Shown here piece after piece: positions 16,346 through 39,114 of a stretch of DNA of 41,474 nucleotides. This DNA is from Candidatus Amesbacteria bacterium (GTDB lineage: Bacteria > Patescibacteriota > Microgenomatia > CAZETR01 > Amesbacteraceae): contig JACRNA010000022.1 of NCBI GenBank assembly GCA_016219445.1, forward strand, positions 1-41,474, read 5' to 3'. How positions within the stretch are numbered: the stretch's first letter is position 1; every line of letters starts with the position of its first letter. Position numbers and translations under genes: made by a program. The notes beneath the pieces were generated by a model. The model was not told the DNA's origin, did not search any database, and saw only the letters and a list, made by a program, of their open reading frames with translations.

Positions 16346-18085
16346 AGCAATGTCTTCATTCGCAAGTTGTCTATTGGAATCGTGATAAGTAATTCTCAGT
16401 GTCAATTTATCTCCATATTTCTCAATAAATTCAATATTATTGATTAGCGGACTCACCGCTTTGATTTTTTTAATTAATTCTTCATAACTTCCAATCAAGT
16501 TAATATTAATGTCTTCAATTATTGGAGAGAATTTTGAAATAGGGGTAAATTGTTTTGTTGTTGTGGCAGATTTTATAATTATTTCAAAATTAATTTCGCA
16601 TATTAAGCACGTATCATAAATGTCGATACGATAATCAAACTTGCTACCCAGTTCTAATTCAAGCCCCTCAATAACACCTTTGAATTTTGTCATATCTTTA
16701 TTTGTTGAACTGAGAATCAAATGTAATTCTTCATATGGAAGATAAACATTTGCAATTTCAAAAAAATTTAACTCCGGTACACGACCCATATTTTCGGTTA
16801 TTATCTTTAGATGTGAATTTGTAAGATTGGTTCTGAGATACTCCCATTCAGTTGAGAGCGGATTTTTTAGTTTTAAACCATTATCTTTATCCACCAGAGA
16901 GTATGTATAGGCTTCAGTAAATCCCCAATGAGAAAGTGCAGATTTTACTTTTGATTCCCAATAAAAGGTCTTGTCGTAAGACGGTGGAGGCAATTTCCCT
17001 GTTATTAATACTGATGGTAAATTGTGATAACCATAAATTCGAGCAACTTCTTCTACCAGATCTTCTGGGATATCAATATCTAGTTTTCTCCACCAAGGGA
17101 TTTTTACTTCCATACCACTTATTTCAAATCCTAACGATTTCAAAATGCTTTCAACTTCACTCTGTTTAATTTCTACTCCCAAATCAATTTTACCTAGTTT
17201 TATAATTTTAGTTGTTTCTTTGGCGTTTAAAATATCCAAAATAGGATGGGTTGTACCACCAAACATCTCAATCCCCTTTTTCAGGGTGGGCAAAACATTT
17301 TCGGTAGCTAATCCTTTTTCAAATAAAACAGCCGCGTCTGTACGAAGGGCTAGAGACATCGAAGTTTTGCGGATATGTGATGGTTCATATATTTGAACAA
17401 ATAATAAAACGTTTTTAGTATTTTCATCAACCGCTGAATTCTGCCCTCCCATAATTCCGCATAAATCAATAATTTTTCCCGAGCCATCTTCTATCACAAT
17501 GTCTCCCCCCTTCAACACATGTTTTTTTTCATCAAGTGTAATCAAACTCTTACCCTTTTTACTTTCTCTCAAAATCATTTTGTGACCGGCAATTTTATCG
17601 TAATCAAAAGTGTGGACGGGCTGACCCATTTCTAACATCAAATAATTACTAACATCTACGACATTATTTATGGCTCTGATCCCGCATAATTCTAATCTTT
17701 GTTTAACTAATGCTGGTGATTCCCCCACTTTAATATTATTTATAAGAGCCGTCGAAAACCTCGAACACAACTCTTTATCTATTTGAACATTTAGATATTG
17801 GACCTTAGAATTTATTTGGATCTTAGAATTTTTAATTTGTAATTTTAATTTTGCCGGATAACCAAATCTCGGCAAAATAGCTGCGCATTCACGGGCAATG
17901 CCAACCACAGACATCATATCGACCCTATTGGTTGTCACTTCAATATCGTAGACATAATCTCTGCCTTTTTTGTGTAATCTGTCTACAGAAGGACCGCACA
18001 ATGAAAGCGCCATCTGTATTTGCTTGGGCGTGGCATCAGTCTTTATAAATTCCCTAAGCCAACTATCTGGTATCAATATTTGCAT
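16301..18085 (-). CDS. pheT: Phenylalanyl-tRNA synthetase beta subunit, short form
   Basis: B3/4-type start MQILIPDSWLREFI, B5 and C-terminal anticodon-binding-like domain, adjacent to pheS. There is no N-terminal OB tRNA-binding domain. The 3' end overlaps the PBP gene by 45 nt (convergent). Confidence 0.85.
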   Translation of the reverse strand: MQILIPDSWLREFIKTDATPKQIQMALSLCGPSVDRLHKKGRDYVYDIEVTTNRVDMMSVVGIARECAAILPRFGYPAKLKLQIKNSKIQINSKVQYLNVQIDKELCSRFSTALINNIKVGESPALVKQRLELCGIRAINNVVDVSNYLMLEMGQPVHTFDYDKIAGHKMILRESKKGKSLITLDEKKHVLKGGDIVIEDGSGKIIDLCGIMGGQNSAVDENTKNVLLFVQIYEPSHIRKTSMSLALRTDAAVLFEKGLATENVLPTLKKGIEMFGGTTHPILDILNAKETTKIIKLGKIDLGVEIKQSEVESILKSLGFEISGMEVKIPWWRKLDIDIPEDLVEEVARIYGYHNLPSVLITGKLPPPSYDKTFYWESKVKSALSHWGFTEAYTYSLVDKDNGLKLKNPLSTEWEYLRTNLTNSHLKIITENMGRVPELNFFEIANVYLPYEELHLILSSTNKDMTKFKGVIEGLELELGSKFDYRIDIYDTCLICEINFEIIIKSATTTKQFTPISKFSPIIEDININLIGSYEELIKKIKAVSPLINNIEFIEKYGDKLTLRITYHDSNRQLANEDIASFRKILIDPDFHKS

Positions 18086-18086
18086 A

Positions 18087-19823
18087 TTAAAACTGATTTA
18101 AAAAACGAATGTCGTTGCTGTATAACAGTCTTAAATCATCTATTTTGACACCAGACTTCATCATATAAGTTCGCTCTACTCCCCAACCAAAAGCAAAGCC
18201 TGTGTACTTAGTAGTATCAACTTTACCAGCTTTCAAAACATTGGGGTGAACCATGCCAGCCCCACCCAATTCAAGCCAACCTTCTTTGCATAATTTACAG
18301 CCACGTCCCAAACAAATATCACAGGTCACATCGACTTCAAAAGAGGGTTCAGTAAATTGAAAGTGATATGGACGAAGTCGCGATTTACGATTTTGGCCAA
18401 AGAATTGTTTGACAAAGTGATCAATGGTGCCTTTGAGATGAGTAATATTAATGCCCTCATCAACCACTAAGCCCTCAAACTGATGAAACATAACCGTATG
18501 AGAAACATCCGATTGCCTTCTATAACATTTACCTATATTTATCATTCTTATCGGAGGCTTTGTCCTTTCCATCTCCCTAACTTGACCATTACTGGTATGC
18601 GGAGTCAACACTAATTTACCTAACTTCTTATTTTCAGGAACATCAACAAAAAATGTTTCGATATCATCACGGGCCGGGTGTGTCTTTTGCATATTCAAAG
18701 CCTCAAACGCATACCAATCCCAATCAACTTCGGGATAACGGACCCGGACAAAACCAATCTTTTCAAAAATACTGCTAATTTCTTCGATGGCATGAGTTAC
18801 TGGGTGAAGATGGCCAATAGGAGGAAGCTTACCGGGCAGCGTTTCATCGACACTGATTTTCTCAGGTTGCTTGGTGTTTACAAGTGCATTCTCAATAGCA
18901 ATTTTGGCCTCATTAAAGACTCTACCAACTTCTGCATCTCTGATTTCATGAGCAATTTGGGTTAGCTGGCCATTTTTTCCCAAGTAATGCACTCTCAATC
19001 TATCTAATTCTTCAGGATCTTTTGATTCCATAATCATAACCAAGGCTTCATTTTTGATATTCAATAGTACTTCTGGCGAAAGATCTGAAGAGACTATTGT
19101 CGATTCTTTTTTCTTAATTTCCAAGTAGTAGATCACCTTGGTGCAATCTTCTTCATATTCAAAGTTGACCGTGTCAATATATGGAATTTCCGAAGTCGAT
19201 TTTACTTGTGTCCCACCATCAGGAATAGGTGTGTACCCCTCAACCCACATTATTCTCAACGGTTTATTTGTTGGTAAACGTTCAGGAATCCAGGGAGACC
19301 GCTTCTTTAGTTCCGAGAGTGTTACAAACTCAGTATTTATAGCCAACGACTTATCAATAAGATTATTAGTTTTCTCCTTTATTTGTAATTGATATTCCTC
19401 TTTAATTTTTCCTTGATATTTAATAAATGCTTTTTTGCCATGTTGACCCTCTATGGGAACAATATTTGGTAATAATTCTTTGGCCGCTTCATGTAAGATA
19501 TGGCCTGCCGAGTGAACCTGCATATTGTGATAACGCCTAATCCAGTTTATTTCACATTCCACTTTATCACCCATTATTAGTTCACCTTTCAGGACTCCCT
19601 CATGAATAATTTTGTCACCTTTTAACAAAACCTGCTTGACCTCAAAAACGCCACTTTCGAATTTAATTATTCCCTGGTCTGAAGGTTGTCCTCCACCTTC
19701 AGGATAAAAAACAGTTTGATCTAGTACAATTTTACAATTTCCCTTCTTTCCATCCACTTCCAATACCTTGGCTGTGCAAACCTTTTGATATGAATCTTCT
19801 AAATATAATGGTTTTGTTGTCAT
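18087..19823 (-). CDS. pheS: Fusion: AlaX-like (tRNA_SAD) N-terminal domain + phenylalanyl-tRNA synthetase alpha subunit
   Basis: Residues 1-~235: DQTVFYPEGGGQPSDQG plus HSAGHILH (HxxxH) are AlaX/AlaRS-editing hallmarks. The second metal motif reads DGGTQ instead of CGGxH. Residues ~240-578 carry the PheS class II core: HPVTHAIEEI, LTPHTSNGQ, FHQFEGLVV, GGAGMVHPNVL and GFAFGWGVER. Confidence 0.85.
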   Translation of the reverse strand: MTTKPLYLEDSYQKVCTAKVLEVDGKKGNCKIVLDQTVFYPEGGGQPSDQGIIKFESGVFEVKQVLLKGDKIIHEGVLKGELIMGDKVECEINWIRRYHNMQVHSAGHILHEAAKELLPNIVPIEGQHGKKAFIKYQGKIKEEYQLQIKEKTNNLIDKSLAINTEFVTLSELKKRSPWIPERLPTNKPLRIMWVEGYTPIPDGGTQVKSTSEIPYIDTVNFEYEEDCTKVIYYLEIKKKESTIVSSDLSPEVLLNIKNEALVMIMESKDPEELDRLRVHYLGKNGQLTQIAHEIRDAEVGRVFNEAKIAIENALVNTKQPEKISVDETLPGKLPPIGHLHPVTHAIEEISSIFEKIGFVRVRYPEVDWDWYAFEALNMQKTHPARDDIETFFVDVPENKKLGKLVLTPHTSNGQVREMERTKPPIRMINIGKCYRRQSDVSHTVMFHQFEGLVVDEGINITHLKGTIDHFVKQFFGQNRKSRLRPYHFQFTEPSFEVDVTCDICLGRGCKLCKEGWLELGGAGMVHPNVLKAGKVDTTKYTGFAFGWGVERTYMMKSGVKIDDLRLLYSNDIRFLNQF

Positions 19824-19866: not shown

Positions 19867-19894
19867 TGAGGCTTGGCCATGAAACTAAGCCTCA
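19867..19894. other. 8-bp hairpin overlapping the stop codon of the 158-aa ORF
   Basis: TGAGGCTT (19867-19874) pairs with AAGCCTCA (19887-19894). The T-run follows on the plus strand only, so it does not look like a canonical terminator for the minus-strand genes. Confidence 0.3.
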
Positions 19895-20368
19895 TATTTT
19901 TTGTTGAATCAATTCTAACAGAAATTCCTTTTCTATTTCTTTTCCGTTCTTCAAAAATCTACCCATTCCTCCTTCAATTCCTCTACCGAATGCTACCATT
20001 GTTAATAATCGAAAATACGTATTTAGCTTGTGTTTTACAGGTAGAATTATGAAGCAAAATTCAGCCAATTCAGAAATTACTATTATAGATTTATTGCTTC
20101 TCTGATTTTGATAGTAAAGTTTATAATTAATTTCATTATTACAAATTTGTTCTATAAGCAACATCCGCCGAGCCCTACGAATACTAAATTTTCCTTTATA
20201 TATACCACCTTTGAGATATCCATAGCAACAGTGATCAAAATCCTCGGGGTATATAACTAAATCCAATCCCATAAATTTTAATCTTCGATTTGAAAGTTGC
20301 TTGAATGACTCACGCAATTCATCAACGGAAGACGAATCTAATATTTTTAATTGAGTTGTTTTGAGCAT
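19892..20368 (-). CDS. Hypothetical protein (158 aa) inserted between rplT and pheS
   Basis: Clean ORF. It is AT-rich relative to its neighbours. An rplT terminator lies upstream and a TATAAT (20376-20381) lies 7 nt before its ATG. I recognise no family. Confidence 0.5.
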   Translation of the reverse strand: MLKTTQLKILDSSSVDELRESFKQLSNRRLKFMGLDLVIYPEDFDHCCYGYLKGGIYKGKFSIRRARRMLLIEQICNNEINYKLYYQNQRSNKSIIVISELAEFCFIILPVKHKLNTYFRLLTMVAFGRGIEGGMGRFLKNGKEIEKEFLLELIQQKI

Positions 20369-20382: not shown

Positions 20383-20408
20383 ATCAAAAACCCCGCTTTA
20401 TGCGGGGT
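20383..20408 (-). terminator. Rho-independent terminator after rplT
   Basis: The minus strand reads CCCCGC-ATAAA-GCGGGG followed by TTTTTGATTT (stem at 20390-20395 / 20401-20406). Confidence 0.75.
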
Positions 20409-20432
20409 GAATAAAATAATAGGCTTCACCCC

Positions 20433-20786
20433 TTACTTCTTGGTAAAGGTAAAACCGGCTTTTTTGACGATTTCAGCAAAGACATTTGGCTGGCGGACCA
20501 CAAGATCGCCCATTATTTTGCGGTCGACTTCTATTTTATTTTTCTTGACACCGTCCATAAATTTGGAATAAGAAACGCCAAAAATCTTGAGCGCAGAGTT
20601 GATGCGCACGATCCAAGTCCTACGCAAGTCTCTTTTCTTGAGCTTTCTGCCATTAAAGGCATATTGTCCGGCATGAAGAACCGCCTCAGCAGCGACTTTG
20701 TATAGCCGGTTTTTGGTCATGCGATAGCCCTTGGCTAGAGCCAATATCTTGTTGTGTCTTGCTCGTCTGTTGTTTTTTACCCGCAT
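20433..20786 (-). CDS. rplT: 50S ribosomal protein L20
   Basis: MRVKNNRRARHNKILALAKGYR... is a typical L20 N-terminus. Conserved infC-rpmI-rplT order. Confidence 0.9.
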   Translation of the reverse strand: MRVKNNRRARHNKILALAKGYRMTKNRLYKVAAEAVLHAGQYAFNGRKLKKRDLRRTWIVRINSALKIFGVSYSKFMDGVKKNKIEVDRKIMGDLVVRQPNVFAEIVKKAGFTFTKK

Positions 20787-24216: not shown

Positions 24217-24288
24217 GGGCATTTAGTTCAGGAGTAGAACGCCTCATTGACATTGAGGAGGTCGGGGGTGCGAAGCCTCCAGTGCCCA
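24217..24288 (+). tRNA. tRNA-Val(GAC), no encoded CCA
   Basis: Manual fold: acceptor GGGCATT/AGTGCCC, D arm GTTC-AGGAGTA-GAAC, anticodon arm CCTCA-TTGACAT-TGAGG, T arm GGGGG-TGCGAAG-CCTCC. The T loop has G where U55 is expected. Confidence 0.75.
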
Positions 24289-25356
24289 CTAACAAATTAA
24301 CTTTGCCAATTTTTCTGTCCCTGTATTTATTTGTTCAGAAGTCGGTAAAGCAAAAGATAAACGTAATGATGACGATTTTCCTCCGAAGGGCTGGAAAATA
24401 TAACCTGGGACAAAGGCAATATTTTGCTCGAGGGCTTTGTAATACAATTCTTGGGTATCTATGGATTCGGGTAATGTCATCCAGATAAACATTCCCCCCG
24501 CAGGACTAGTCCAGGATGCTTCTTTGGGCATATATTTAGTGAGAGCCGAAAGCATTGTCTGACACTTATTTTTGTAATAACTTCTTGCAGCATTTAAATA
24601 ATTTGGATAATCGGGATGAGATAAGACATAATTTGAAATTTGCTGTAATAGGCCACTGGTACATAGATCCATGCCGGTTTTCGCTCTAGTCAAAGCCTCT
24701 ATTGTCTCTGGCTTGCCAATCACGATTCCAATTCGTAAGGCCGAACCGACAATTTTTGAAAGTGAGGTCAGATATATAGTCTTGTCTGAATTTAACGAAT
24801 AAATACTCTGCGGTGGTTTGGCATCAAAATAGAGTTGACCATACGGGTCGTCTTCCAGAATCAATTTATTACTTTGGGAAAACTGCTTTCTTGCCGTCAG
24901 ATCCATGGTCTCCCCTGTCGGATTGCCAAAATTGGGAATGACATAGACGGTATTTGCACTTTCAAGATCGGAAACATATTTGGATCCGTAGGCATTGAAG
25001 GCATATAGTGCCGCAAAATAGGTCGGATTGGTCACATACATTTTGTCGCCTGGATTTATAAATACCCGGCCCACGAGATCCAAGGCCTGCTGAGAACCAG
25101 AAGTAATAAGTATACTTTCAGGGGTGACTGAGTACATTTTGGCAAGAGTCTCCCTCAAAGACAAAATACCTTGGGTTGGAGTATATTGGGGGTTTGGCTC
25201 AATGATGGACAGAGCTTCTTTGATCAGATTGAGAGGCAAGGCTTCAGGATTAGGAGTACCCCCGGCAAAAGAAATGAGATTGGGGGTCTCGGTATGCTTT
25301 AACAAATTCATGACAGTTGGGTCGGCAATTTTGGCGAATCTATCTGAATATGTCAT
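24289..25356 (-). CDS. PLP-dependent aminotransferase, ARO8/LysN (aromatic / 2-aminoadipate) type
   Basis: ISFAGGTPNPEALP matches the ARO8-family N-terminal motif. YVIPNFGNPTG is present. SLSKIVGSALRIG carries the PLP lysine. Confidence 0.8.
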   Translation of the reverse strand: MTYSDRFAKIADPTVMNLLKHTETPNLISFAGGTPNPEALPLNLIKEALSIIEPNPQYTPTQGILSLRETLAKMYSVTPESILITSGSQQALDLVGRVFINPGDKMYVTNPTYFAALYAFNAYGSKYVSDLESANTVYVIPNFGNPTGETMDLTARKQFSQSNKLILEDDPYGQLYFDAKPPQSIYSLNSDKTIYLTSLSKIVGSALRIGIVIGKPETIEALTRAKTGMDLCTSGLLQQISNYVLSHPDYPNYLNAARSYYKNKCQTMLSALTKYMPKEASWTSPAGGMFIWMTLPESIDTQELYYKALEQNIAFVPGYIFQPFGGKSSSLRLSFALPTSEQINTGTEKLAKLIC

Positions 25357-26189
25357 ATGTATTTATCCAATTGTACTAAATTTTTATATTCAGGAAAAGT
25401 AAACATGTTTTGCATAGACGGAACACCGTCTGATTTTAAACTTAGTAACGAATCTCTAGTTGCTTTCAAGGCAGTAAAGAGTGTAGTAACAGGGTAAGCG
25501 ATCAGTTTATAACCAAGTTGGGTTAAATCTTTTTGACTTAATATAGGTGTTTTACCTCCCTCAAGCATGTTAACAAGTAACGGGATCTGGGTAACTAATT
25601 TGGGGATCTGAATTAGTTGTTCTAAATTTTCAGGTGCTTCAATGAAAATTATATCTGCACCAGCTTCGATATAAGAAAGACTTCGATTGATTGAACTCTC
25701 AAATCCTTCCACTGCGATTGCATCGGTTCTGGCACAGATCGTAAAATCGGGATCCGTTTGAGCATTTTTAGCGGCTATAATTTTGGAACGCATTTCTTCG
25801 ACACCGACCAATTCTTTTCCATCCATATGCCCACATCTTTTGGGATGCTTTTGATCCTCGATAAACATGCTGGCCACTCCGATTCTCTCGTACTCGCGTA
25901 CCGTCATGTAGACATTTCTGGCGTTGCCGTATCCCCCATCACCGTCAGCAAAGACCGGAATATCTATACTCTTTATGATTTTTTCGATAACCGAAGTCAT
26001 ATCCGATAGTCCTAAGAGTCCTACATCAGGAAGTCCCCAATTGACCCCGGCAATAGCAAATCCACCCACAGATAGAGCCTCAAAACCGGCATTTTCTATC
26101 AATTTTGCTGAAAGACAGTCGTGAGCAACCGGAAGCTGAATACTCCCAGGTTTCATTAATAAGTTTTTGAATATTTTTGCTTTTGACAT
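25353..26189 (-). CDS. Isocitrate lyase / PEP mutase superfamily enzyme (methylisocitrate-lyase-like)
   Basis: FADGDGGYGN and FIEDQKHPKRCGHMDGKELV (K-[KR]-C-G-H lyase-type loop), then ICARTDA and IFIEAP. ATGA-type overlap with the aminotransferase gene. The start could be M12. Confidence 0.8.
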   Translation of the reverse strand: MSKAKIFKNLLMKPGSIQLPVAHDCLSAKLIENAGFEALSVGGFAIAGVNWGLPDVGLLGLSDMTSVIEKIIKSIDIPVFADGDGGYGNARNVYMTVREYERIGVASMFIEDQKHPKRCGHMDGKELVGVEEMRSKIIAAKNAQTDPDFTICARTDAIAVEGFESSINRSLSYIEAGADIIFIEAPENLEQLIQIPKLVTQIPLLVNMLEGGKTPILSQKDLTQLGYKLIAYPVTTLFTALKATRDSLLSLKSDGVPSMQNMFTFPEYKNLVQLDKYI

Positions 26190-26196
26190 AAAAAAT

Positions 26197-26239
26197 CCCC
26201 GCTATTGCGGGGTTGTAAAACACTTCTACAAAACCCCGC
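26197..26239 (-). promoter_or_regulatory. Mutually exclusive antiterminator / terminator hairpins (attenuator)
   Basis: The minus strand reads TAG-GCGGGGTT-(17 nt)-AACCCCGC-AATA-GCGGGG-ATTTTTT-ATG. GCGGGGTT/AACCCCGC (8 bp) competes with CCCCGC/GCGGGG plus U-run for the same CCCCGC segment. Confidence 0.65.
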
Positions 26240-26284
26240 CTAGGAGGTAAAGTAAAAGTAAAAAGAAACAACTGCTTGGTTCAT
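26240..26284 (-). CDS. Leader peptide MNQAVVSFYFYFTS (14 aa)
   Basis: ATG AAC CAA GCA GTT GTT TCT TTT TAC TTT TAC TTT ACC TCC TAG. Five consecutive Phe/Tyr codons. The stop codon directly abuts the antiterminator 5' arm. Confidence 0.6.
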   Translation of the reverse strand: MNQAVVSFYFYFTS

Positions 26285-26291
26285 GTCTTAT

Positions 26292-26320
26292 ATTGTAAAG
26301 AATCTTTCGCTAAATTGCAA
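26292..26320 (-). promoter_or_regulatory. Sigma70-like promoter TTGCAA-N17-TACAAT
   Basis: -35 at 26315-26320 and -10 at 26292-26297 (minus strand). The -10 ends 7 nt before the leader-peptide ATG, implying a leaderless or nearly leaderless transcript. Confidence 0.5.
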
Positions 26321-31341: not shown

Positions 31342-32763
31342 ATGATAACAAAGCGCCAGAAGCAGGTACTAGAGTTTATAAAAATATTTCGAGACAAGAA
31401 GGGCTATGCTCCGTCTTTGGAAGAAATAAAGCACCATTTTGGCCTAGCTTCGGTATCCACTGCTCATTATCACGTTAAGTCCCTCGAGAAAATGAGTTAT
31501 CTTAAAAAGCAGGAAAATTTACCGAGAAGCATTGATGTATTTGAAACACGGCCCATGGTTCAAATCCCTATTTTAGGTCGTATTTCTGCCGGGCAACCAA
31601 TAGAGGCAATTCAAGATAAAGAAATTATTGCGGTTCAACAAAACCTAATCCTTTCTTCCTCAGAAGTTTATGCTCTTCGTGTAGTTGGTAACAGTATGAT
31701 TGAAGAAAATATAAATGATGGTGATGTTATTTTAGTCCGCAAACAGGAAACCGCAGAAAACGGACAGAAAGTGGTCGCACTTATAGATAATCACGAAGCA
31801 ACTTTGAAGAAATTCTATAGAGAGAAGGGGCATATCCGATTGCAACCAGCTAATAAGGCTATGGAGCCACTTATATTTAGAAATGGACATGATATTTCTA
31901 TTCAAGGTGTTGTTTTGGATGTCATCCGAGAAGGGCTGTCGCCAACCGTTGTTTCCACAGAAATTGAAGCTAAACCTAGTGAATATAGGGAACTTCCCTT
32001 GAACGAAATTATCTGCGGAGACGCAGTTGACGTAATGAAGGCAATGCCTCCGGACTCGATTGATCTGGTGGTAACCTCCCCTCCATACGATGAATTAAGA
32101 AATTATAATGGTTATCGGTTCAATTTTGAGGGAATAGCCAAGGGACTATTCAGAGTTGTCAAAAAAGGCGGTGTCTTAGTGTGGGTAGTCGGAGACAAAA
32201 TAAATAAAGGGGATAGAAGTCTTACAAGCTTCAGACAAGCCCTGTTCTTTCAGAGTGTAGGTTTCAACGCCCATGATGTCATGATTTATAGGAAAAAGAA
32301 CACTCCTTTTATGAGATCTAATGCCTACACAAATTGCTATGAGTTTATGTTCGTTTTCAGTAAAGGTTCTCCCAAAACATTTAATCCCTTAAAAACCAAA
32401 ACCATCCGACAGGGTCAAGAAATGCTTCCGTTCAATAAAAAGGCAGATGGAATAAATAAAAAAACAAAAGGTGAGCTAAAACCAGAAAAAACCTTAACGA
32501 ATATCTGGGATTATGCCGTAGGGTTTGGTGGCTCGACTAGCGATAAAATTGCATTTCAACATACTGCTATATTCCCAGAAAAATTAGCAGAGGACCATGT
32601 TCTTTCATGGACAAAAACAGGAGATGTTGTTTTTGATCCAATGTGCGGTTCTGGAACGACTTGCAAAATGGCCGCTATAAATAAACGCTACTATATTGGA
32701 TGCGATATATCTAAAGAATATGTTGAACTTACGAAGAAAAGGCTAAAATACTTCAATCTCTAG
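31342..32763 (+). CDS. Fusion: complete LexA-type repressor (wHTH + S24 autopeptidase) + beta-class N4/N6 DNA methyltransferase
   Basis: Residues 1-~205: LexA wHTH (RQKQVLEFI...SLEEIKHHFGLASVSTAHYHVKSLEKMSYL), cleavage-site-like ISAGQPI, and the Ser/Lys dyad GNSM ... ATLKKF. Residues ~225-473: motif IV DLVVTSPPY comes before motif I FDPMCGSGTTCKMA, the beta-class order. SPPY is more typical of N4-cytosine enzymes. Confidence 0.8.
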   Translation: MITKRQKQVLEFIKIFRDKKGYAPSLEEIKHHFGLASVSTAHYHVKSLEKMSYLKKQENLPRSIDVFETRPMVQIPILGRISAGQPIEAIQDKEIIAVQQNLILSSSEVYALRVVGNSMIEENINDGDVILVRKQETAENGQKVVALIDNHEATLKKFYREKGHIRLQPANKAMEPLIFRNGHDISIQGVVLDVIREGLSPTVVSTEIEAKPSEYRELPLNEIICGDAVDVMKAMPPDSIDLVVTSPPYDELRNYNGYRFNFEGIAKGLFRVVKKGGVLVWVVGDKINKGDRSLTSFRQALFFQSVGFNAHDVMIYRKKNTPFMRSNAYTNCYEFMFVFSKGSPKTFNPLKTKTIRQGQEMLPFNKKADGINKKTKGELKPEKTLTNIWDYAVGFGGSTSDKIAFQHTAIFPEKLAEDHVLSWTKTGDVVFDPMCGSGTTCKMAAINKRYYIGCDISKEYVELTKKRLKYFNL

Positions 32764-33344
32764 TAGTTTTTCTTTAGAAACTCCATAGCACTTTTTAGCA
32801 ATTCAACATCGTCCTTGAAACGCCCTAGACCAGTATTACAACTATCGCATATCCAGCCACCTGGTCTGCCTGTACGATGATCGTGTTCTAGAACAACTTT
32901 GCTGGTTATGCCAGCAATTGTTCTTTTTTTACAAACTGGACATTCAAAAGGTTCGTTGTTTGGTTTCTTTTTAAGCCATTCTATTCTATCGGTTCGAGAT
33001 ACGCCGACACCTTCCATTTTTACACGACAATCTTTACAAGAGGGCCGCCTTACTGACCTATTATTTTTTGCGTTCTGATTTTTGGCAAAATCCGTTGTCT
33101 TTTTTAGTTTATGACAAACATTACAAATTTTTTTAGAAAATCCGTCTCCCGTTTTTCTCACATCTATAATATCGATACCATTTTTACCTAAATCAACTTG
33201 CTTCCAAATCCTTATAAAAAATATCGAAGCATTATTTTTTGCTTCTGACTTTATAACGCCAACATCACCTTTTTCAACTACAATCTCTCCGGGAGCTACA
33301 ATGCCCTTCTTTGCTACGACAAATTTATGTGGTGAATTAGTCAT
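32760..33344 (-). CDS. His-Me finger (Endonuclease VII / HNH-type) nuclease, probable restriction endonuclease
   Basis: LEHDHRTGRPGGWICDSCNTGLGRF matches the Endonuclease VII-family motif DH.H.TG..RG.LC..CN..LG. Additional CxxC pairs are CNVCH, CKDC and CPVCK. It is convergent and overlapping with the methyltransferase gene, and preceded by an HTH gene. Confidence 0.7.
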   Translation of the reverse strand: MTNSPHKFVVAKKGIVAPGEIVVEKGDVGVIKSEAKNNASIFFIRIWKQVDLGKNGIDIIDVRKTGDGFSKKICNVCHKLKKTTDFAKNQNAKNNRSVRRPSCKDCRVKMEGVGVSRTDRIEWLKKKPNNEPFECPVCKKRTIAGITSKVVLEHDHRTGRPGGWICDSCNTGLGRFKDDVELLKSAMEFLKKNY

Positions 33345-33993: not shown

Positions 33994-35508
33994 ATGATTA
34001 AATACATTGCCTACTGCCGAAGATCAATCGAACAGGAAGAAAAACAGGCTTTATCTATCGAAGCGCAAATTGCCGAACTGAAAGAATTTGCGCTAAAAGA
34101 AAAACTTGATGTTGTGGAATTTTTAACCGAATCCAAGACCGCCAAAGTTCCCGGCCGCGAAGTTTTTGGCCAACTAATCAAGAAAATTCAGCAAGGCGAA
34201 GCTCAAGGAATTTTGGCATGGCACCCTGACAGACTGGCTAGGAATTCCGTTGATGGTGGCCAAATTATTTATCTTCTGGATACCGAAAAAATTCTTGACC
34301 TGAAATTTCCCACTTTCTGGTTTGACAGTACACCTCAAGGGAAATTCATGTTATCAATTGCTTTCTCTCAATCAAAATATTATGTGGACAATTTAAGTGA
34401 GAATGTAAAACGCGGTAATCGCCAAAAACTCCGTCGGGGTGTTTATCCCTCAAAAGCTCCAATTGGCTATTACAACGAACCGCGATTACGAACGATTGAA
34501 GTTGATCGACAAACAGCAACAATCGTTCAGAAAGCTTTTGAGATGTATGGGACCGGAAATTGCTCCATGGCTGATATTCAGCGATTTTTCTTTAAAAAAG
34601 GAGTCAGAAGAAAGAAAAATGACAAAATGTTGCCCATGAGCCAAGTTCAAAAACTTTTATCAAACACTTTTTACTATGGTTTGATGAAATATGCCGGCGA
34701 ATTTTATGAAGGGATCCATAAACCATTAATCTCCAAAGGTTTGTTCGACAAAGTTCAACAAGTTCAAAAACAGCGCGGAAAACCGAGAAAACAAGCCCAC
34801 AATTTTCCGTTTCTCGGCCTTGTTCGTTGTGGTGAATGTGGGGCTTCGGTGACTGCTGAAGAACACTTCAAGTTTTATCCTTCAACCAGAGGTAAAGTTG
34901 CGTATGTTTACTATCACTGCACAAAAAGGAAAATTCGCCAGCCCTGTTCACAGCGTTACCTCAATAGTGTCGAGTTTGAAAAACAGCTACGGGAACTTTT
35001 AGCAAAAATAAATCTCCCCAAAAGATGGGCTGAAAAGTGGCTGGAGAAACTGGATCAGGAACAAAAAACGGAAATTGGCAGAGTTGAGGAAAACACAACA
35101 GAAATTAACCAAAAAGTACAAACAGTCGACCAAAAATTAGGCCGCTTGTTAGACGTTTATCTAAATCAGGAAGTTGACCTGCTTTCCTATCAACAAAAGA
35201 AAAGTCAATTATTGGAAGAAAAAGTCGGACTGAAAGAAAAAATTGCAGAGACATTAAAAAACGGAAACGATTGGTTCGAACCAATGAGGGAATTTATAAA
35301 CGTGGCCGCCGAAGCGGCCAAAACCGCGCGCGCCGAAAACAATAACCAAGAATTAAAACTCTTGGTTCAAAAAGTCGGTTCGAACTACACTTTATTAAAT
35401 CGGCAGCTTTTTTGCCAGTTCAAAAAGGGCTTCGCAGAGGTCTTTTCCTTCGGCGGCTCCTGCGGAGCCGCCTCCGACTCGCTACAAAATCCAATTTGGT
35501 GGGCCTGA
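33994..35508 (+). CDS. Large serine recombinase (LSR1)
   Basis: Resolvase catalytic domain (IAYCRRSIEQEEKQ, WHPDRLARNSVDG), recombinase domain, zinc ribbon (RCGECGASVTAE...YYHCTKRK) and a coiled coil. The last ~35 codons lie in IR-B, and the TGA (35506-35508) lies inside tRNA-Leu. Confidence 0.9.
   Translation: MIKYIAYCRRSIEQEEKQALSIEAQIAELKEFALKEKLDVVEFLTESKTAKVPGREVFGQLIKKIQQGEAQGILAWHPDRLARNSVDGGQIIYLLDTEKILDLKFPTFWFDSTPQGKFMLSIAFSQSKYYVDNLSENVKRGNRQKLRRGVYPSKAPIGYYNEPRLRTIEVDRQTATIVQKAFEMYGTGNCSMADIQRFFFKKGVRRKKNDKMLPMSQVQKLLSNTFYYGLMKYAGEFYEGIHKPLISKGLFDKVQQVQKQRGKPRKQAHNFPFLGLVRCGECGASVTAEEHFKFYPSTRGKVAYVYYHCTKRKIRQPCSQRYLNSVEFEKQLRELLAKINLPKRWAEKWLEKLDQEQKTEIGRVEENTTEINQKVQTVDQKLGRLLDVYLNQEVDLLSYQQKKSQLLEEKVGLKEKIAETLKNGNDWFEPMREFINVAAEAAKTARAENNNQELKLLVQKVGSNYTLLNRQLFCQFKKGFAEVFSFGGSCGAASDSLQNPIWWA
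35401..35502. repeat. IR-B, right copy (102 bp)
   Basis: Perfect inverted copy of 33832-33933. It overlaps the recombinase 3' end and the last 6 nt (CCACCA on the tRNA strand) of tRNA-Leu(UAG). Confidence 0.95.
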
Positions 35509-35581
35509 GAGGACTCGAACCTCTACCCCTCGCGGGACAGGTTCCTAAAACCTGCGTGTATACCAATTTCACCACAAGCCC
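35497..35581 (-). tRNA. tRNA-Leu(UAG), type II; CCA present, with C75-A76 supplied by the element side of the junction
   Basis: Manual fold: acceptor GGGCTTG/CAGGCCC, D arm GTG-AAATTGGTATA-CAC, anticodon arm CAGGT-TTTAGGA-ACCTG, long variable arm CCC-GCGA-GGG, T arm AGAGG-TTCGAGT-CCTCT, discriminator A. Confidence 0.9.
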
Positions 35582-35590
35582 AATTCTGAA

Positions 35591-35596
35591 ATTATA
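35591..35596 (-). promoter_or_regulatory. TATAAT box 9 nt upstream of the tRNA-Leu(UAG) 5' end
   Basis: The minus strand reads GTTGTATAATTTCAGAATT-GGGCTTG. Confidence 0.35.
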
Positions 35597-35598
35597 CA

Positions 35599-35633
35599 AC
35601 AAAAAAGCCTCGACTCCTGCCCGTTGTCGAGGC
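35599..35633 (-). terminator. Rho-independent terminator after the methyltransferase gene
   Basis: The minus strand reads GCCTCGAC-(11 nt)-GTCGAGGC followed by TTTTTTGTTG (stems at 35607-35614 / 35626-35633). Confidence 0.7.
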
Positions 35634-35691
35634 TCAAGAATTATGTCGCCTCAAAAATTAATTTAAAGCCACAAAACCTATATATACTATA

Positions 35692-36447
35692 CTATAGGAC
35701 AGCTTGTCTGTCAAGTCGCTGGACTTTCACAAAAATACTCGGTCCAAAATAGATACTTGCTAGGGTTTTTTGAAGCCAATTTTCGAGTTTCAATGAATTG
35801 AAAGGTAATCCCCTAAAATTGGATACAGACAGCAATTTGTCAATCTTATATCCACTCTTGATCAGGAGTTTTTGTAATGAAACCGGATGATGATTGACAA
35901 AGGGAATGGTCTGATTGCGGATGTTGACAGCCCGCCTTCTATCTATGGGAGCTGGCAATATGGGCTTGCCAGAAATAAAGCTCATAATACGAGATTTCAA
36001 ATTCAGAGAATTGGCAAATTCAATAATAGCTACACCATTGGGTTTTAATATTCGGTGGATTTCATTTAAGACAATACTGGTTTCTGTCAGGTGATGCATG
36101 ACCCGAACCATGACCACCAGATCACAGCTCTGGTCGGGTAGCTTTGTCTTCTGGCAAGTACCAGCTAGAATTTTGATATTCTTTATACCCTTCAAATGAG
36201 ACTTGGCAAAATTTCGCTGTTTTAGTGATGGCTCTACAAGCAGTACTTGCTTGGCATAAGAAGTCAGAAAGCTTGCCAATCTCCCGTATCCCCCACCTAG
36301 ATCCAAGGCAGTCTGAAAATGCCGGGTACCCAAGAGATTTTTTAGAGCAATAATTTCACTCTCGTGTTCATAGTTTCTGGTTTTCCAATAATCCAGATAG
36401 GAAAAATCGGGGTCATCATAAAAGTGTCCCATATTACTCGATGTCAC
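35692..36447 (-). CDS. Class I SAM-dependent methyltransferase
   Basis: ALDLGGGYGRL (motif I), LLVEPS, CDLVVMVRVMHH. Confidence 0.75.
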   Translation of the reverse strand: MTSSNMGHFYDDPDFSYLDYWKTRNYEHESEIIALKNLLGTRHFQTALDLGGGYGRLASFLTSYAKQVLLVEPSLKQRNFAKSHLKGIKNIKILAGTCQKTKLPDQSCDLVVMVRVMHHLTETSIVLNEIHRILKPNGVAIIEFANSLNLKSRIMSFISGKPILPAPIDRRRAVNIRNQTIPFVNHHPVSLQKLLIKSGYKIDKLLSVSNFRGLPFNSLKLENWLQKTLASIYFGPSIFVKVQRLDRQAVL

Positions 36448-37003
36448 TTAAAAATTGGTTGACTCCCTTGGCCCAAGAGCCTTGGGAGGGAGGAGTATAT
36501 TTGGCCATGATTTTTTCGGGTGTGTCCAAGCCTTTATCTACATAATTCTTTTTCAAGCCCCTAGCAACCGTATCCATCCCATCGACAAACGACTCAAATC
36601 TGGTCACCAGATCACCATAAATTCCATAGCCCCAGCAATTGTAGGAATTAACAGGGATCTTTTTACAGAGATTTGACTCTTGCTGAGCAATTGCTGCCAG
36701 AAGTCTCCAATCAAGGCCGTATTTATCGGAAATTTCGACTAATTCTCTGGCGTGGGGAAGCAATGGAGACTTGTATTTCTTGAGATAATTTGTGATGAGG
36801 AGCACTCTACCGTCAGCAGAGCCAAACTTTAGATTCCAAGTGGGAACAGAGTCATCTTTGGGACTTAGGACTTGGGTCGTATAGGCTACATCAGCTTTAG
36901 GGATAGTAGGCGCAGGAGCGCTCAAGACCAAGGTAAGAAAGGTGGCGACTAATGTCAATGGTGCGCCTATCGCAAATCCCCCTACCCACCATAGTTTATG
37001 CAT
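36434..37003 (-). CDS. Membrane-anchored protein with a lysozyme-like / lytic-transglycosylase-like motif
   Basis: N-terminal TM. LLAAIAQQESNLC resembles the SLT catalytic-Glu-Ser motif. The assignment is weak. Confidence 0.4.
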   Translation of the reverse strand: MHKLWWVGGFAIGAPLTLVATFLTLVLSAPAPTIPKADVAYTTQVLSPKDDSVPTWNLKFGSADGRVLLITNYLKKYKSPLLPHARELVEISDKYGLDWRLLAAIAQQESNLCKKIPVNSYNCWGYGIYGDLVTRFESFVDGMDTVARGLKKNYVDKGLDTPEKIMAKYTPPSQGSWAKGVNQFLSDIE

Positions 37004-37032
37004 GCCTCTATTTTACCAAATTTTCATTTTTA

Positions 37033-37117
37033 GTGTCGGGAGCGGGACTCGAACCCGCACGAAGCAAAAACTTCGAGAGCTCTTAAGGCTCTTGCGTATA
37101 CCATTTCGCCACCCCGA
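37033..37117 (-). tRNA. tRNA-Leu(UAA), type II, no encoded CCA
   Basis: Acceptor GTCGGGG/TCCCGAC, D arm GCG-AAATGGTATA-CGC, anticodon arm AGAGC-CTTAAGA-GCTCT, variable arm CGAAG-TTTTTG-CTTCG, T arm GCGGG-TTCGAGT-CCCGC. Confidence 0.9.
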
Positions 37118-37142
37118 CTAGATGCATTAATCATTTTATCAT

Positions 37143-38120
37143 TTAAACCTCTCGGATGACTTCAAATCCCTTTAGGCTTCCGACAACGGCGAAACCGTAG
37201 ACTTTTTGGGCAATGCCCATTTGTTTTATTTTTTTGGCCGTCTCGTTTAGAGTCGCTGCTGAACCGACAGCATCATCAATTAATAATAAATTATTATATC
37301 TGACATTAATTTTATCAATAAATATTGTTTCTCTAGCATTTCTGATTCTTTCCTCCAGCTTACCCAATGTCTTCTGAGCGACTCTGATTTTACCTGGATA
37401 TGCCTTGGACATATCTACGATTGGCAAAGCAAGATTTAGCTTTTTGGCAAATTCTTTTAAAAACTGGACCTTGCGCAAAATACTATGAGGTAGGTAACCT
37501 ATAGCATCAATATTTTTTTCAATAATAAGTTTATTTATAATGTCTTTAGATTCTTCTGCTGTTATCGCAATAAGATCACGATTTTCAGATTGTTTGGAAT
37601 AGAGCATTAAACACCCGAGTCTAGTCTTGCCAAAAGTCGGCAAACTATAAAAATCGCTGTAGTATATACCATCCAAATTCATATCTGATCTATATGTAGC
37701 AGATACGTTTGATGTCGCGTCAATCCATCCTTCTGATGAAAATAGAGAATTGGCACTTTCTCTGTCTTTGATATACTGAGATAACAAGCTATTTTCCTGT
37801 TCAGACTTACTGACATTTGATAACCAGCTACGAAAACCAGACAGTCCATCTCTAAACTGTCCAGTTGGGTCTACATAAGCAAAATATTTATCCAATAAAA
37901 CATGAGTTTCTTTGATTTGGTCGGGAGATATTGTAACTAATGTATAGAATACCTTTGGCGCGGACCCGGACTTGGTCAATTTGCCAATTTCAACTAAGGA
38001 TTTTAGTTGGCGGTGAAGTGCCACCTTACCTATGCCTAAGTGATCGGCTAGCTCACTTACTCTAGCCTGACCATTAGTTTTTAGGTATCCCAGAATTTTA
38101 ATTTTTGTATCTGTAATCAT
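37143..38120 (-). CDS. Winged-HTH + phosphoribosyltransferase-domain protein (PurR-like architecture)
   Basis: The N-terminus KILGYLKTNGQARVSELADHLGIGKVALHRQLKSL is a wHTH. The C-terminal LLLIDDAVGSAATLNETAKKI is the PRPP-binding loop of type I PRTases. Confidence 0.65.
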   Translation of the reverse strand: MITDTKIKILGYLKTNGQARVSELADHLGIGKVALHRQLKSLVEIGKLTKSGSAPKVFYTLVTISPDQIKETHVLLDKYFAYVDPTGQFRDGLSGFRSWLSNVSKSEQENSLLSQYIKDRESANSLFSSEGWIDATSNVSATYRSDMNLDGIYYSDFYSLPTFGKTRLGCLMLYSKQSENRDLIAITAEESKDIINKLIIEKNIDAIGYLPHSILRKVQFLKEFAKKLNLALPIVDMSKAYPGKIRVAQKTLGKLEERIRNARETIFIDKINVRYNNLLLIDDAVGSAATLNETAKKIKQMGIAQKVYGFAVVGSLKGFEVIREV

Positions 38121-38153
38121 AGTATACAGTATACCATATATTATATACTATTG

Positions 38154-38227
38154 TGGACGGCTAGGGATTCGAACCCCAGACCCCCGCTGTGTAAAAGCGG
38201 TGCTCTAACCAGCTGAGCTAGCCGTCC
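38154..38227 (-). tRNA. tRNA-Val(UAC), no encoded CCA
   Basis: Acceptor GGACGGC/GCCGTCC, D arm GCTC-AGCTGGTTA-GAGC, anticodon arm CCGCT-TTTACAC-AGCGG, T arm TGGGG-TTCGAAT-CCCTA. Confidence 0.9.
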
Positions 38228-38239
38228 GAATGAATAGAG

Positions 38240-38322: not shown

Positions 38323-38384
38323 GCACTTTAAATATTTTAACATATTATCTTTACAAAATATGGTATACGCTATATACTTGAGAT

Positions 38385-39089: not shown

Positions 39090-39114
39090 CAAAATTGATA
39101 TAATATGTATTGTT

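Follow-up and report, generated by a model that had tools for sequence, protein, structure and literature searches.

A predicted ribosome-mediated Phe/Tyr attenuator upstream of a lyase–aminotransferase operon in Candidate Phyla Radiation bacteria

In a genome of Candidatus Amesbacteria, the genes for an ICL/PEP-mutase-fold lyase and a class I aminotransferase are preceded by a compact element that is, in our judgement, very probably a ribosome-mediated attenuator, one that responds to how far tRNA-Phe and tRNA-Tyr are charged and controls the two-gene operon. The element occupies the minus strand of the window (the whole stretch analysed here, 41,474 nucleotides of contig JACRNA010000022.1), and its counterparts stand before orthologous lyase genes in other members of the Candidate Phyla Radiation (CPR). 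Gene regulation in this radiation is almost unstudied. Our literature search found no paper joining Patescibacteria, attenuation and leader peptide, and as far as that search reached, this would be the first case of classical ribosome-mediated attenuation in the CPR.

An earlier note on this DNA had listed a TTGCAA-N17-TACAAT promoter 7 nt ahead of a 14-codon ORF with five successive Phe/Tyr codons, a stop codon touching a segment able to pair with an 8-nt partner, and a CCCCGC-AATA-GCGGGG-U6 terminator reaching the downstream ATG. All of these parts are found where the note had placed them (Table 1), with an A ahead of the six Ts, and a pattern scan also recovers the terminator. The E. coli pheM peptide with which the note had compared the leader proved correct against the E. 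coli sequence. To this scheme we add a further segment (segment 1), which gives the element four segments in the manner of the trp attenuator. The 112-nt region folds at -34.7 kcal/mol (z = -4.7), and none of 200 shuffles did as well; the duplex between segments 2 and 3, at -14.8 kcal/mol, was equalled in 1 of 500 shuffles. The promoter matches the consensus at only 9/12, and runs of at least five F/Y codons occur four times in the window over six frames, against about 0.8 expected. As the F/Y run alone is not rare and the promoter match is weak, the significance of the element rests on its conservation.

Table 1. Parts of the leader element and of the operon behind it, in window coordinates
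Feature	Position	Strand	Remarks
-35 box TTGCAA	26315..26320	-	spacer to -10 box 17 nt
-10 box TACAAT	26292..26297	-	7 nt (ATAAGAC) between box and leader ATG at 26284
Leader ORF MNQAVVSFYFYFTS*	26240..26284	-	14 codons and TAG
Regulatory codons 8-12, Phe-Tyr-Phe-Tyr-Phe (TTT TAC TTT TAC TTT)	26249..26263	-	
Segment 1, ACCUCC (Thr-Ser codons)	26243..26248	-	pairs with segment 2 if ribosome-free (anti-antiterminator); within minimum-free-energy fold
Segment 2, GCGGGGTT (also given as GCGGGGUU)	26232..26239	-	antiterminator 5' arm; directly 3' of TAG stop
Segment 3, AACCCCGC	26207..26214	-	common to antiterminator (with segment 2) and terminator (with segment 4)
Segment 4, GCGGGG, and A-U6 tract	26190..26202	-	terminator 3' arm; A+T6 at 26196-26190
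Intrinsic terminator CCCCGC/AATA/GCGGGG	26212-26197	-	followed by A+T6; abuts lyase ATG at 26189
Regulated gene 1, 278-aa ICL/PEP-mutase-fold C-C lyase	25353..26189	-	Pfam PEP_mutase 2.4e-45
Regulated gene 2, 355-aa class I aminotransferase, LysN/kynurenine-aminotransferase-like	24289..25356	-	
tRNA-Val	24217-24289	+	closes operon

In about 18 distinct CPR (Patescibacteria) loci, a short F/Y ORF and then a terminator stand upstream of an orthologous lyase gene. These loci belong to Amesbacteria, other Microgenomates, WWE3 and unclassified Patescibacteria, and their lyases range from 79% down to 47% identity to the window protein. The organisms carrying the element are uncultured; two of the loci, L095 and L112, derive from groundwater of the Hainich wells. 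Leader peptides such as MNKAVVFFAFYFTS, MQIPASNFYYFFTSQVRGALGSLN, MSTQGKKFFYFFAYLA, MGRISITTNNYFSYFYFSALYGG, MLKINGFYFYFFTKALKGAGV and MSNKQKFFAFFFTTRKRG are 13 to 24 aa long, and their lengths and N- and C-termini vary among loci; what is conserved is the F/Y run, of 5–7 codons in most relatives, together with the C-terminal Thr-Ser region. Three leaders (L105, L109 and L110) have GTG starts. In L111 the stems are kept and the F/Y run is lost, the rplT ORF there running on into the stems.

A search for short ORFs in which at least four of six codons are F/Y, with a terminator behind them, covered the whole window and the 114 loci retrieved for comparison. Within the window this site alone matched; the CPR lyase loci gave the corresponding site ahead of the lyase gene, and E. 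coli pheM, the positive control, was recovered as well. Other matches were of three kinds only. In L099 and L105 an alternative-frame ORF overlaps the leader, in L001 the matching ORF is antisense, and L006 has a second aromatic leader; the 351-aa protein encoded behind this second leader matched nothing in Pfam or the PDB and has no homologue among the loci compared. When 13 CPR leaders were used to build a covariance model, the model picked up the held-out leaders L003, L111, L112, L004, L018 and L009; its only other match of note was the attenuator of E. coli pheM, at 27 bits (E about 0.03). By leader scan and covariance model alike, neither the ~75 more distantly related lyase loci nor any other part of the window has the element, which is exclusively associated with one lyase clade. 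It travels with the lyase gene, the upstream neighbours being different among leader-bearing loci and often divergent.

F/Y runs do arise by chance in AT-rich DNA, as the four in the window illustrate, and the promoter match carries little weight alone; one could therefore take the short ORF for a chance frame, or for the gene of a functional small hydrophobic protein, and the hairpin for an ordinary terminator or insulator. Such a reading is very improbable, as conservation is limited to the F/Y run and the RNA-pairing segments and does not extend to the peptide's length and ends, and as the element is confined to a single lyase clade and contains a copy of the terminator 3' arm that co-varies with the terminator. 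Nor does the hairpin serve as a terminator for the upstream genes, since those genes differ and often lie on the other strand; in the window this candidate was the DUF5660 gene, and other loci have different or divergent neighbours in its place.

The covariation just mentioned extends to all three segments, which change together across loci: segments 3/4/2 read CCCCGC/GCGGGG/GCGGGG, UCCCGC/GCGGGA/GCGGG(G/A), CCGCC/GGCGG/GGCGG or GCCUCC/GGAGGC/GGGGGCC. All loci have a canonical GC-rich stem and then 6–8 U. The terminator is 96% paired across 16–19 loci, its covariation score was reached by none of 500 shuffles, and compensatory changes are seen in 3 of 6 pairs (MAFFT alignment) or 5 of 6 (model-fitted alignment). 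In all 17 loci the energy of the 2:3 duplex lies between -10 and -16 kcal/mol, at least about the stability of the terminator in each, and in 15 of the 17 it was equalled by only 0–4 of 500 shuffles. Pairing of the antiterminator is 74%–87% in register (the 87% comes from an alignment not fitted to that pairing) compared to at most 64% when slid, and its covariation score was reached by 2/500 and 11/500 shuffles. For the 1:2 hairpin, pairing of the 4-bp core stands at 94% across loci; covariation is not seen on the unfitted MAFFT alignment, and compensatory changes appear only in the model-fitted one. The earlier note had proposed looking for the peptide and both hairpins upstream of orthologous operons. 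They are conserved there, compensatory changes in the stems included, and the ribosome-mediated terminator/antiterminator switch that it had suggested is supported, the F/Y run, the terminator and the antiterminator arm all being kept in the ~18 distinct loci.

Segments 2 and 4 are direct repeats and could in principle be binding sites, and the regulatory biology of the CPR is largely unexplored. Antitermination by a protein or an uncharged tRNA at the GCGGGG repeats (TRAP-, PyrR- or T-box-like), with the ORF uninvolved, is nonetheless a scenario to which we give very little credence. The repeat sequence shifts between lineages yet stays complementary to segment 3, which argues for RNA–RNA pairing over a protein site, and binding would leave unexplained why a conserved F/Y run sits at a fixed distance from segment 2. 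The region, only ~95 nt long, matches no Rfam family, T-box included, at the gathering threshold. At that threshold the window as a whole gives tRNAs only; GcvB (E = 0.0056) and other permissive-threshold Rfam matches reflect only terminator and U-rich stretches.

If the element is a ribosome-mediated attenuator, transcription would start no more than ~2 nt from the leader AUG and the ribosome would load on a leaderless mRNA. With Phe- and Tyr-tRNA plentiful, the ribosome would reach the stop codon and cover segment 2, the 3:4 terminator would form, and transcription would end before the lyase ATG. A ribosome stalled on the F/Y codons would instead cover segment 1 and leave segment 2 free, so that the 2:3 antiterminator would form and the lyase and aminotransferase genes would be transcribed. 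In the absence of translation, 1:2 and 3:4 would both form, again giving termination. Masked-ribosome folding agrees with this in 12 of 13 loci, where the antiterminator forms if the ribosome is stalled at the first or the middle F/Y codon and the terminator forms if it has reached the stop; in L095 the terminator persists in all masked folds. The same test on the established E. coli pheM attenuator gave no switch, and the folding results are thus supportive, not calibrated.

In the window the U-tract runs into the lyase ATG, with no Shine-Dalgarno sequence there, and several relatives have only 0–13 nt between U-tract and ATG. This spacing would suit translational control, in which the 3:4 hairpin and U-tract occlude the lyase start, translation of the leader exposes it, and termination is unregulated. 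We consider this improbable, given that the stem and U-tract found at every locus are the signature of an intrinsic terminator, and that in WWE3 and L019-type loci the terminator lies 35–54 nt upstream of a lyase start with its own AAGGA-type site. At that distance occlusion cannot be the conserved mechanism. In the window itself, transcriptional and translational control could act together.

The promoter is also shared among the relatives. A -35 box TTGAC(A/T/G) or TTGCAA is found at the same spacing in 12 of 13 orthologous loci (L097 has no recognisable one), and the -10 box ends 7–11 nt ahead of the leader start codon in 12 of 13. No Shine-Dalgarno sequence precedes the leader ORF in the 13 loci checked. 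With the -10 box so close, transcription is predicted from the sequence to start about 0–3 nt from the leader AUG, and the leader ORF would be effectively leaderless. Leaderless-type gene starts are common in the window: 11 of its 37 genes have a -10 box ending 6–9 nt before the start codon (1–3 in shifted controls), and a Shine-Dalgarno motif is present in only four of the 37.

The lyase finds its best PDB match in the petal death protein (7e-54). Its catalytic loop EDQKHPKRCGH and the motifs DGDGG, ARTD and IEAP are invariant in 22 clade members and place it in the lyase branch of the ICL/PEPM superfamily, which is marked by a K(K/R)CGH loop with Cys and by Mg-binding Asp/Glu residues. The usual S-G motif is G-G in this clade. 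The fold and catalytic residues are those of petal death protein/2,3-dimethylmalate lyase/2-methylisocitrate lyase; the EDQ, the K-R-C-G-H loop and its catalytic Cys, the ARTD Arg and the IEAP Glu are shared with Coxiella PrpB (E110, K116, C118, R152 and E182). The protein differs from PrpB in having NML for NMT and Phe for the 'SAxRAM' Arg, positions at which the petal death protein has Ile and Tyr, and which we take to be the PrpB residues binding the distal carboxylate of succinate. An identity as PrpB/2-methylisocitrate lyase (TIGR02317) was rejected, as the score of 262.6 bits is under the NCBIfam prpB cut-off of 354.4 and these two positions are altered as in the petal death protein. In PEP phosphomutases the motif EDKxxxxxNS replaces the Cys loop; here the lyase Cys loop is present, the mutase motif is not, and TIGR02320 scores 115.7 versus a cut-off of 319.6, and a role in phosphonate biosynthesis was likewise set aside. 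The 'YPRS' Arg was dropped as a key lyase residue after a check against the Coxiella PrpB paper, E. coli having Leu there. Searches of the literature for this lyase family with phenylpyruvate, and for Patescibacteria with methylisocitrate lyase, returned nothing relevant.

The aminotransferase start overlaps the lyase stop (ATGA). The earlier note had assigned this enzyme to the aromatic/2-aminoadipate family; the class I assignment stands, the enzyme is more exactly LysN/kynurenine-aminotransferase-like, and most relatives have an IlvE or AspAT-like enzyme in its place. Across loci the lyase is constant and is accompanied by one of four interchangeable aminotransferase types (IlvE, LysN/KAT-like and two AspAT-like). 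The lyase of this clade is always paired with an aminotransferase, unlike the ~75 more distant homologues. Small ORFs between the two genes in L112 and L006 were considered as a tautomerase-like component and rejected, having no Pfam match and no evident mutual similarity.

The gene neighbourhood bears on the link to aromatic amino acids, which the earlier note had left unexplained. In L113 and L111 the order is rplT-leader-lyase-ilvE-pheS-pheT, with overlapping genes, and this position of the module directly between rplT and pheS largely explains the link. The note's observation that no leader precedes pheS is true of the window, where the element precedes thrS by ~3 kb and pheS is served by a separate -10 box, and does not extend to these two relatives. 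In L099 and L105 tyrS is just downstream, and an archaeal lyase homologue lies between trpS and pheS.

It is the codon content and the neighbourhood that suggest a response to Phe/Tyr starvation by an operon that may raise Phe/Tyr supply. The likely route would be arylpyruvate transamination, with the lyase either yielding the 2-oxo acid or removing a co-product. Ultra-small symbionts are thought to rely on their hosts for aromatic amino acids, and to our knowledge CPR and DPANN organisms are generally held unable to make them. It is possible, and we propose it only tentatively because we think it rather doubtful as a whole, that CPR bacteria and DPANN archaea have a new two-enzyme aromatic-supply route, in which a PDP-like lyase makes an arylpyruvate or pulls its transamination and an interchangeable aminotransferase finishes that step, and that the leader is an ancient pheST-type attenuator of common ancestry with pheM, which stayed with the lyase module when the genes were rearranged.

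By its codon content, the leader provides a built-in functional label for an uncharacterised, aminotransferase-paired clade of ICL/PEPM lyases, marking it as one predicted to be switched on at Phe/Tyr shortage. Repeated linkage of the clade to pheS, tyrS or trpS, even in an archaeon, turns this into a testable prediction on amino-acid salvage. Given the rplT–pheS position shared with pheM in some CPR genomes, one may also ask if pheST attenuation is an old trait or has arisen repeatedly.

Of the known systems, the E. coli pheST-ihfA attenuator with its leader pheM (RF01859) comes closest. Both leaders have 14 codons with a Phe-rich run containing Tyr at codons 8–12, pheM is identical to MNQAVVSFYFYFTS at 7 of 14 positions, and in both elements the terminator and antiterminator share an arm. 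In L113 and L111 the CPR element occupies the same rplT–pheS site and there controls pheST too, whereas the window element governs the lyase and aminotransferase genes instead of pheST, and neither the rplT–pheS position nor pheST control is found there. CPR leaders are richer in Tyr codons than pheM, and the CPR leader is predicted to be leaderless, in contrast to pheM with its 5' UTR and ribosome-binding site. The RF01859 Phe_leader model gives 16.7 bits (E = 2.8) on the window, under its 55-bit gathering threshold, and has no match at that threshold in five CPR loci; E. coli pheM scores 75 bits. The likeness to pheM may reflect homology or convergence, between which elements this short do not allow a distinction.

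With the E. coli trp attenuator the CPR element shares its logic: segment 1 contains the regulatory codons or directly follows them, the stop codon adjoins segment 2, and the 2:3 antiterminator and 3:4 terminator are mutually exclusive. It differs in the amino acid sensed, in being far more compact (~95 nt) and in its predicted leaderless start. The leaderless form of leader is otherwise known mainly from Actinobacteria and Deinococcus. Leaderless leader ORFs from these groups include those of Corynebacterium trp/ilvB/leu and the mycobacterial polycysteine uORFs (bioRxiv 10.1101/834739; PMC3890552; PMC4007540; PMC11857589). As in those, the CPR mRNA would start at the start codon, with one-amino-acid attenuation of the downstream operon; the phylum (CPR), the amino acids (Phe/Tyr) and the regulated genes are different. 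The mechanism is a textbook one, and what is new is the lineage, the predicted leaderless form and the enzymes that it regulates.

The element that the earlier note placed at 26190-26320 is confirmed on the minus strand, and the anatomy it described there (promoter, leader ORF, stems, terminator and lyase ATG) is correct throughout. The terminator was recovered by a pattern scan of the window, and the 112-nt region has a folding energy of -34.7 kcal/mol (z = -4.7). The antiterminator (2:3) and terminator (3:4) stems stand as proposed, but a further pairing had been overlooked. In the minimum-free-energy structure, segment 2 and its flank pair with the last leader codons (ACCUCC and the preceding UACUUUUAC), which gives the full four-segment layout (1:2, 2:3, 3:4) of a trp-type attenuator.

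Features of the predicted attenuator and of neighboring parts of the window
Feature	Coordinates	Strand	Description
-35 box	26320-26315	minus	TTGCAA
Spacer between TTGCAA and TACAAT		minus	17 nt
-10 box	26297-26292	minus	TACAAT
TACAAT to leader ORF		minus	ATAAGAC, 7 nt
Leader ORF	26284-26240	minus	14 codons, MNQAVVSFYFYFTS, stop
Segment 2	26239-26232	minus	GCGGGGTT, immediately 3' of leader TAG stop
Loop between segments 2 and 3		minus	17 nt
Segment 3	26214-26207	minus	AACCCCGC
Terminator loop		minus	AATA, between segment 3 and GCGGGG
Segment 4	26202-26197	minus	GCGGGG
U-tract	26196-26190	minus	A+T6, after segment 4
Lyase start codon	26189	minus	ATG of 278-aa gene, right after A+T6
Gene 1	25353-26189	minus	PEP_mutase/ICL fold, lyase-type loop EDQKHPKRCGH
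Gene 2	24289-25356	minus	class I aminotransferase, overlaps gene 1 by ATGA
Terminator 3' of rplT	20383-20440	minus	GGGGTGAA...TTCACCCCGC-ATAAA-GCGGGG-TTTTT, immediately 3' of rplT stop (...AGFTFTKK, stop)
158-aa ORF	19892-20368	minus	between rplT and pheS
PheS	18087-19823	minus	578 aa
PheT	16301-18085	minus	594 aa
Y1 transposase domain	12853-13662		IS200-like
LexA-methyltransferase ORF	31342-32763	plus	473 aa
Endonuclease VII/His-Me finger protein	32760-33344
Large serine recombinase	33994-35508	plus
Large serine recombinase	39887-41398	minus

By itself, the element is not clearly more than would be expected by chance: there are four F/Y codon runs of five or more in the six frames of the window, and the promoter match is 9/12. 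What carries the case is comparison with other genomes. Loci of lyase relatives were fetched from genome and metagenome collections and through exact-protein look-up, with lyase identities to the window from 79% down to 47% across the loci compared. In ~18 distinct loci from Amesbacteria, other Microgenomates, WWE3 and unclassified Patescibacteria, the same layout lies 5' of the lyase, as the earlier note's interpretation would predict: a short ORF with a run of 5-7 F/Y codons, followed by a GC-rich hairpin and U-tract. Examples of the leader peptides are MNKAVVFFAFYFTS, MRFLINFYNFYFTS, MTQILFFSLFFTS, MQIPASNFYYFFTSQVRGALGSLN, MSTQGKKFFYFFAYLA, MTNCQIKKFSFFFFNSPDGDECC, MKKTNQVKSYYFFFTDLARAGLF, MGRISITTNNYFSYFYFSALYGG, MTTRQSYFYSFTFSPSGRGL, MLKINGFYFYFFTKALKGAGV, MSNKQKFFAFFFTTRKRG and MKTGQIFSFYFFFNHRRRLVC; conservation is confined to the F/Y run and the stem-forming nucleotides. 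That the hairpin merely terminates the preceding gene is ruled out, because upstream genes differ between loci (DUF5660, methyltransferase, RRF or rplT; in some loci divergent genes for tRNA-binding, cellulase, PBP, SBP or RuvC proteins).

A blind scan for a terminator preceded by a short ORF with four or more F/Y in six codons, run over the window and all of the 114 fetched loci, recovered the CPR leader sites and the positive control, E. coli pheM. Within the window it found this site alone, and the ~75 loci with more remote lyase homologues gave no match. The other matches were of three kinds. L099 and L105 each gave an ORF in an alternative frame, overlapping at the same leader site; in L001 the ORF was antisense; and L006, a Patescibacteria MAG, contributed a second aromatic leader. 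Two records with a CPR-type leader-lyase module (L003 and L009) are titled 'uncultured Gammaproteobacteria bacterium', labels that look doubtful; between terminator and lyase the former has a small additional ORF and the latter a ~270-nt GC-rich insert.

For each locus, the terminator was taken and the best upstream partner of its 5' arm sought. A partner was found in 17/17 loci (-10.4 to -16.3 kcal/mol), the 2:3 duplex being roughly equal to the terminator in stability or more stable. Shuffled upstream regions equaled it in 0-4 of 500 trials in 15 of the 17 loci, and in 13 and 20 of 500 in the other two. Segments 3, 4 and 2 change in concert between lineages: CCCCGC/GCGGGG/GCGGGG, UCCCGC/GCGGGA/GCGGG(G/A), CCGCC/GGCGG/GGCGG and GCCUCC/GGAGGC/GGGGGCC. 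In a MAFFT alignment of 16 leaders, 95.8% of terminator cells are paired, with compensatory changes in 3/6 pairs (covariation 0.44 versus 0.10; 0/500 shuffles); for the antiterminator the values are 74% (at most 57% when slid), 3/8 and 2/500. A covariance model built from 13 leaders with the 1:2 and 3:4 pairings only was used to align 19 loci. Here 96.5% of terminator cells are paired with 5/6 pairs compensatory (0/500 for the whole fitted structure, 1:2 plus 3:4), and the antiterminator, which lies outside the model, has 86.8% paired (at most 63.6% slid), 2/6 compensatory and 11/500. The stems vary in a compensatory manner in both alternative structures. The 1:2 core is 94% paired and invariant in the unfitted alignment, so this hairpin is supported by conservation and energy only.

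We also folded leaders with their 5' part masked to 11 nt past the A-site codon, an equilibrium test that ignores co-transcriptional order. A mask at the first or middle F/Y codon gave the antiterminator and one at the stop codon the terminator, the predicted switch, in 12/13 loci (exception, L095). The test is not calibrated, as E. coli pheM, a well-established attenuator, stays in the terminator form; in these terms the CPR elements would have passed a test stricter than necessary. Taken across the CPR loci, the comparison argues for the ribosome-mediated attenuation that had been proposed.

Translation of the leader is probably leaderless. In 12/13 distinct loci there is a near-consensus -35/-10 pair whose -10 hexamer has its 3' end 7-11 nt (mostly 7-9) ahead of the leader's start codon, and a Shine-Dalgarno motif was never seen before the leader ORF in the 13; this spacing predicts transcription starting at the AUG/GUG or 1-3 nt before it. 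Such a leader fits the genome, given the few Shine-Dalgarno motifs (4/37 genes) and the excess of close -10 boxes in the window: 11/37 genes, pheS, infC and the DUF5660 gene among them, have a box (at least 5/6 positions) whose end is 6-9 nt ahead of the start codon, versus 1-3 for shifted controls. In this CPR genome, gene expression appears to rely on leaderless mRNAs as a major mode. Leaderless leader ORFs have been documented in Corynebacterium, Mycobacterium and Deinococcus (bioRxiv 10.1101/834739, PMC3890552, PMC4007540, PMC11857589); our literature search found none for Patescibacteria.

The lyase is the partner that stays constant, and its close homologues come from Patescibacteria MAGs. 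The aminotransferase varies among four types: LysN/KAT-like in the window's clade (gene 2 is nearest to Pyrococcus PH0207 and Thermus LysN), IlvE in most of the rest (348 versus 279 bits for the NCBIfam BCAT equivalog cut-off), AspAT-like of 358-373 aa in L112 and L009, and a different class I type of ~400 aa (401-406 aa) in L006 and the Micrarchaeota locus L008. No adjacent aminotransferase was seen among ~75 lyase homologues at 40-48% identity. The window lyase keeps the PrpB catalytic set (E, K, C, R, E) but falls below the cut-off of the prpB model, and its best PDB match is the petal death protein. Two of its residues differ from those of methylisocitrate lyases: the Thr of NMT is replaced by Leu and the Arg of SAxRAM by Phe, positions at which the petal death protein has Ile and Tyr. 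In E. coli PrpB this Thr and Arg bind succinate at its distal carboxylate. The window enzyme would be expected to cleave or form a malate-type 2-hydroxy acid, the leaving acid not being succinate. Compatible with this is a lyase yielding an arylpyruvate (e.g., from 2-arylmethyl-malate, or from arylacetate and glyoxylate) as the substrate for transamination to Phe or Tyr. Removal of oxaloacetate, pulling aspartate-dependent transamination forward, is also compatible, but fits poorly with IlvE.

In the window, cyclophilin, short trigger factor and DUF5660 genes lie upstream of the element, and the operon ends at a tRNA-Val gene encoded on the other strand. Beyond it, nfo, thrS, infC, rpmI, rplT, the 158-aa ORF, pheS and pheT run in the direction of the operon, the module preceding the thrS...pheT cluster by ~3 kb. 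The terminator 3' of rplT has a CCCCGC/GCGGGG stem identical to that of the attenuator and an 8-nt upstream complement overlapping its 5' arm; its minimum-free-energy fold combines the terminator with a different upstream hairpin (z = -3.2). It could be what is left of an ancestral rplT-leader-pheS attenuator (compare L111 and L113, below), or alternatively a terminator coupled to rplT translation. It is followed by a TATAAT 7 nt ahead of the ATG of the 158-aa ORF, which has no Pfam or NCBIfam match. The window's PheRS is of unusual editing architecture: PheS fuses an N-terminal AlaX-like domain (NCBIfam AlaXM, 4e-40, residues 3-224) to the alpha core, and the match of the short PheT to the bacterial model begins at model position 158. 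Elsewhere, the 473-aa ORF is a LexA-methyltransferase fusion (LexA DNA-binding, S24 peptidase and N6/N4 DNA methylase domains). The two serine recombinases bracket a tRNA cluster (seven genes: Leu x4, Val, Phe, Gly) along with several ORFs without assignment, and 33994-41398 may be an integrated element or inversion module; the endonuclease VII and Y1 transposase genes are nearby.

The link to aromatic amino acids, which the earlier note had left unexplained, is largely answered by synthetase-gene neighbors and by a pheM-like position. tyrS follows the operon in L099 and L105, the latter with pheT ~2.8 kb upstream. In an archaeal MAG (L007; DATDSO010000004.1, 1538-5150) the order is trpS-lyase-pheS (PheRS alpha), the stop of the lyase (50% identical) overlapping pheS, and L008 has lyase-class I aminotransferase-MFS transporter; these archaeal homologues (45-50% identity) keep the associations without any leader. 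Aromatic aminoacyl-tRNA synthetase genes regularly accompany this lyase clade. The second leader of L006 (DASVCQ010000130.1, 5350-5507; 20.5 bits, a weak CPR-model match) consists of TTGACA-N16-TAATAAT, the Tyr-biased ORF MKIWRTMYFTYYFLKEGGLSCA and a CCTCCC-N7-GGGAGG-T7 terminator that runs up to the ATG of a 351-aa protein with no Pfam or PDB match, which suggests that CPR bacteria have a small regulon under Phe/Tyr attenuation. Another weak match (21 bits, E = 0.6), 3' of the aminotransferase in L112 (5283-5450), comprises a promoter, the short ORF MKLRNSARHNLDLCLIT and a terminator-like hairpin before a tRNA gene; it may have arisen by chance or represent a Leu-rich leader of unrelated kind.

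Against Rfam RF01859, the model for the pheST attenuator, E. coli pheM scores 75 bits and the window element 16.7 bits, and five CPR loci have no match at the gathering threshold; by Rfam's criterion the window element is not a family member. In the reverse direction, the CPR model matches the E. coli pheM attenuator at 27 bits (E ~0.03, 467-kb search). Genomic position is more telling than these scores. In L113 the genes overlap and run thrS-infC-rpmI-rplT-[leader]-lyase-ilvE-pheS-pheT, and the ATG of the leader falls within the last rplT codons. L111 shares this order, its rplT ORF running into ...KFTSQPRG (stop) and the stems, with the F/Y run lost. The element thus sits where pheM does in E. 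coli, and in these two loci presumably controls pheST too. The attenuator would then be of the pheST type, having probably stayed with the lyase module in most lineages. The mechanism is of a known kind; what appears to be new is the CPR lineage, the leaderless configuration, the genes regulated, and a functional label for an uncharacterized lyase-aminotransferase module common to CPR bacteria and DPANN-like archaea.
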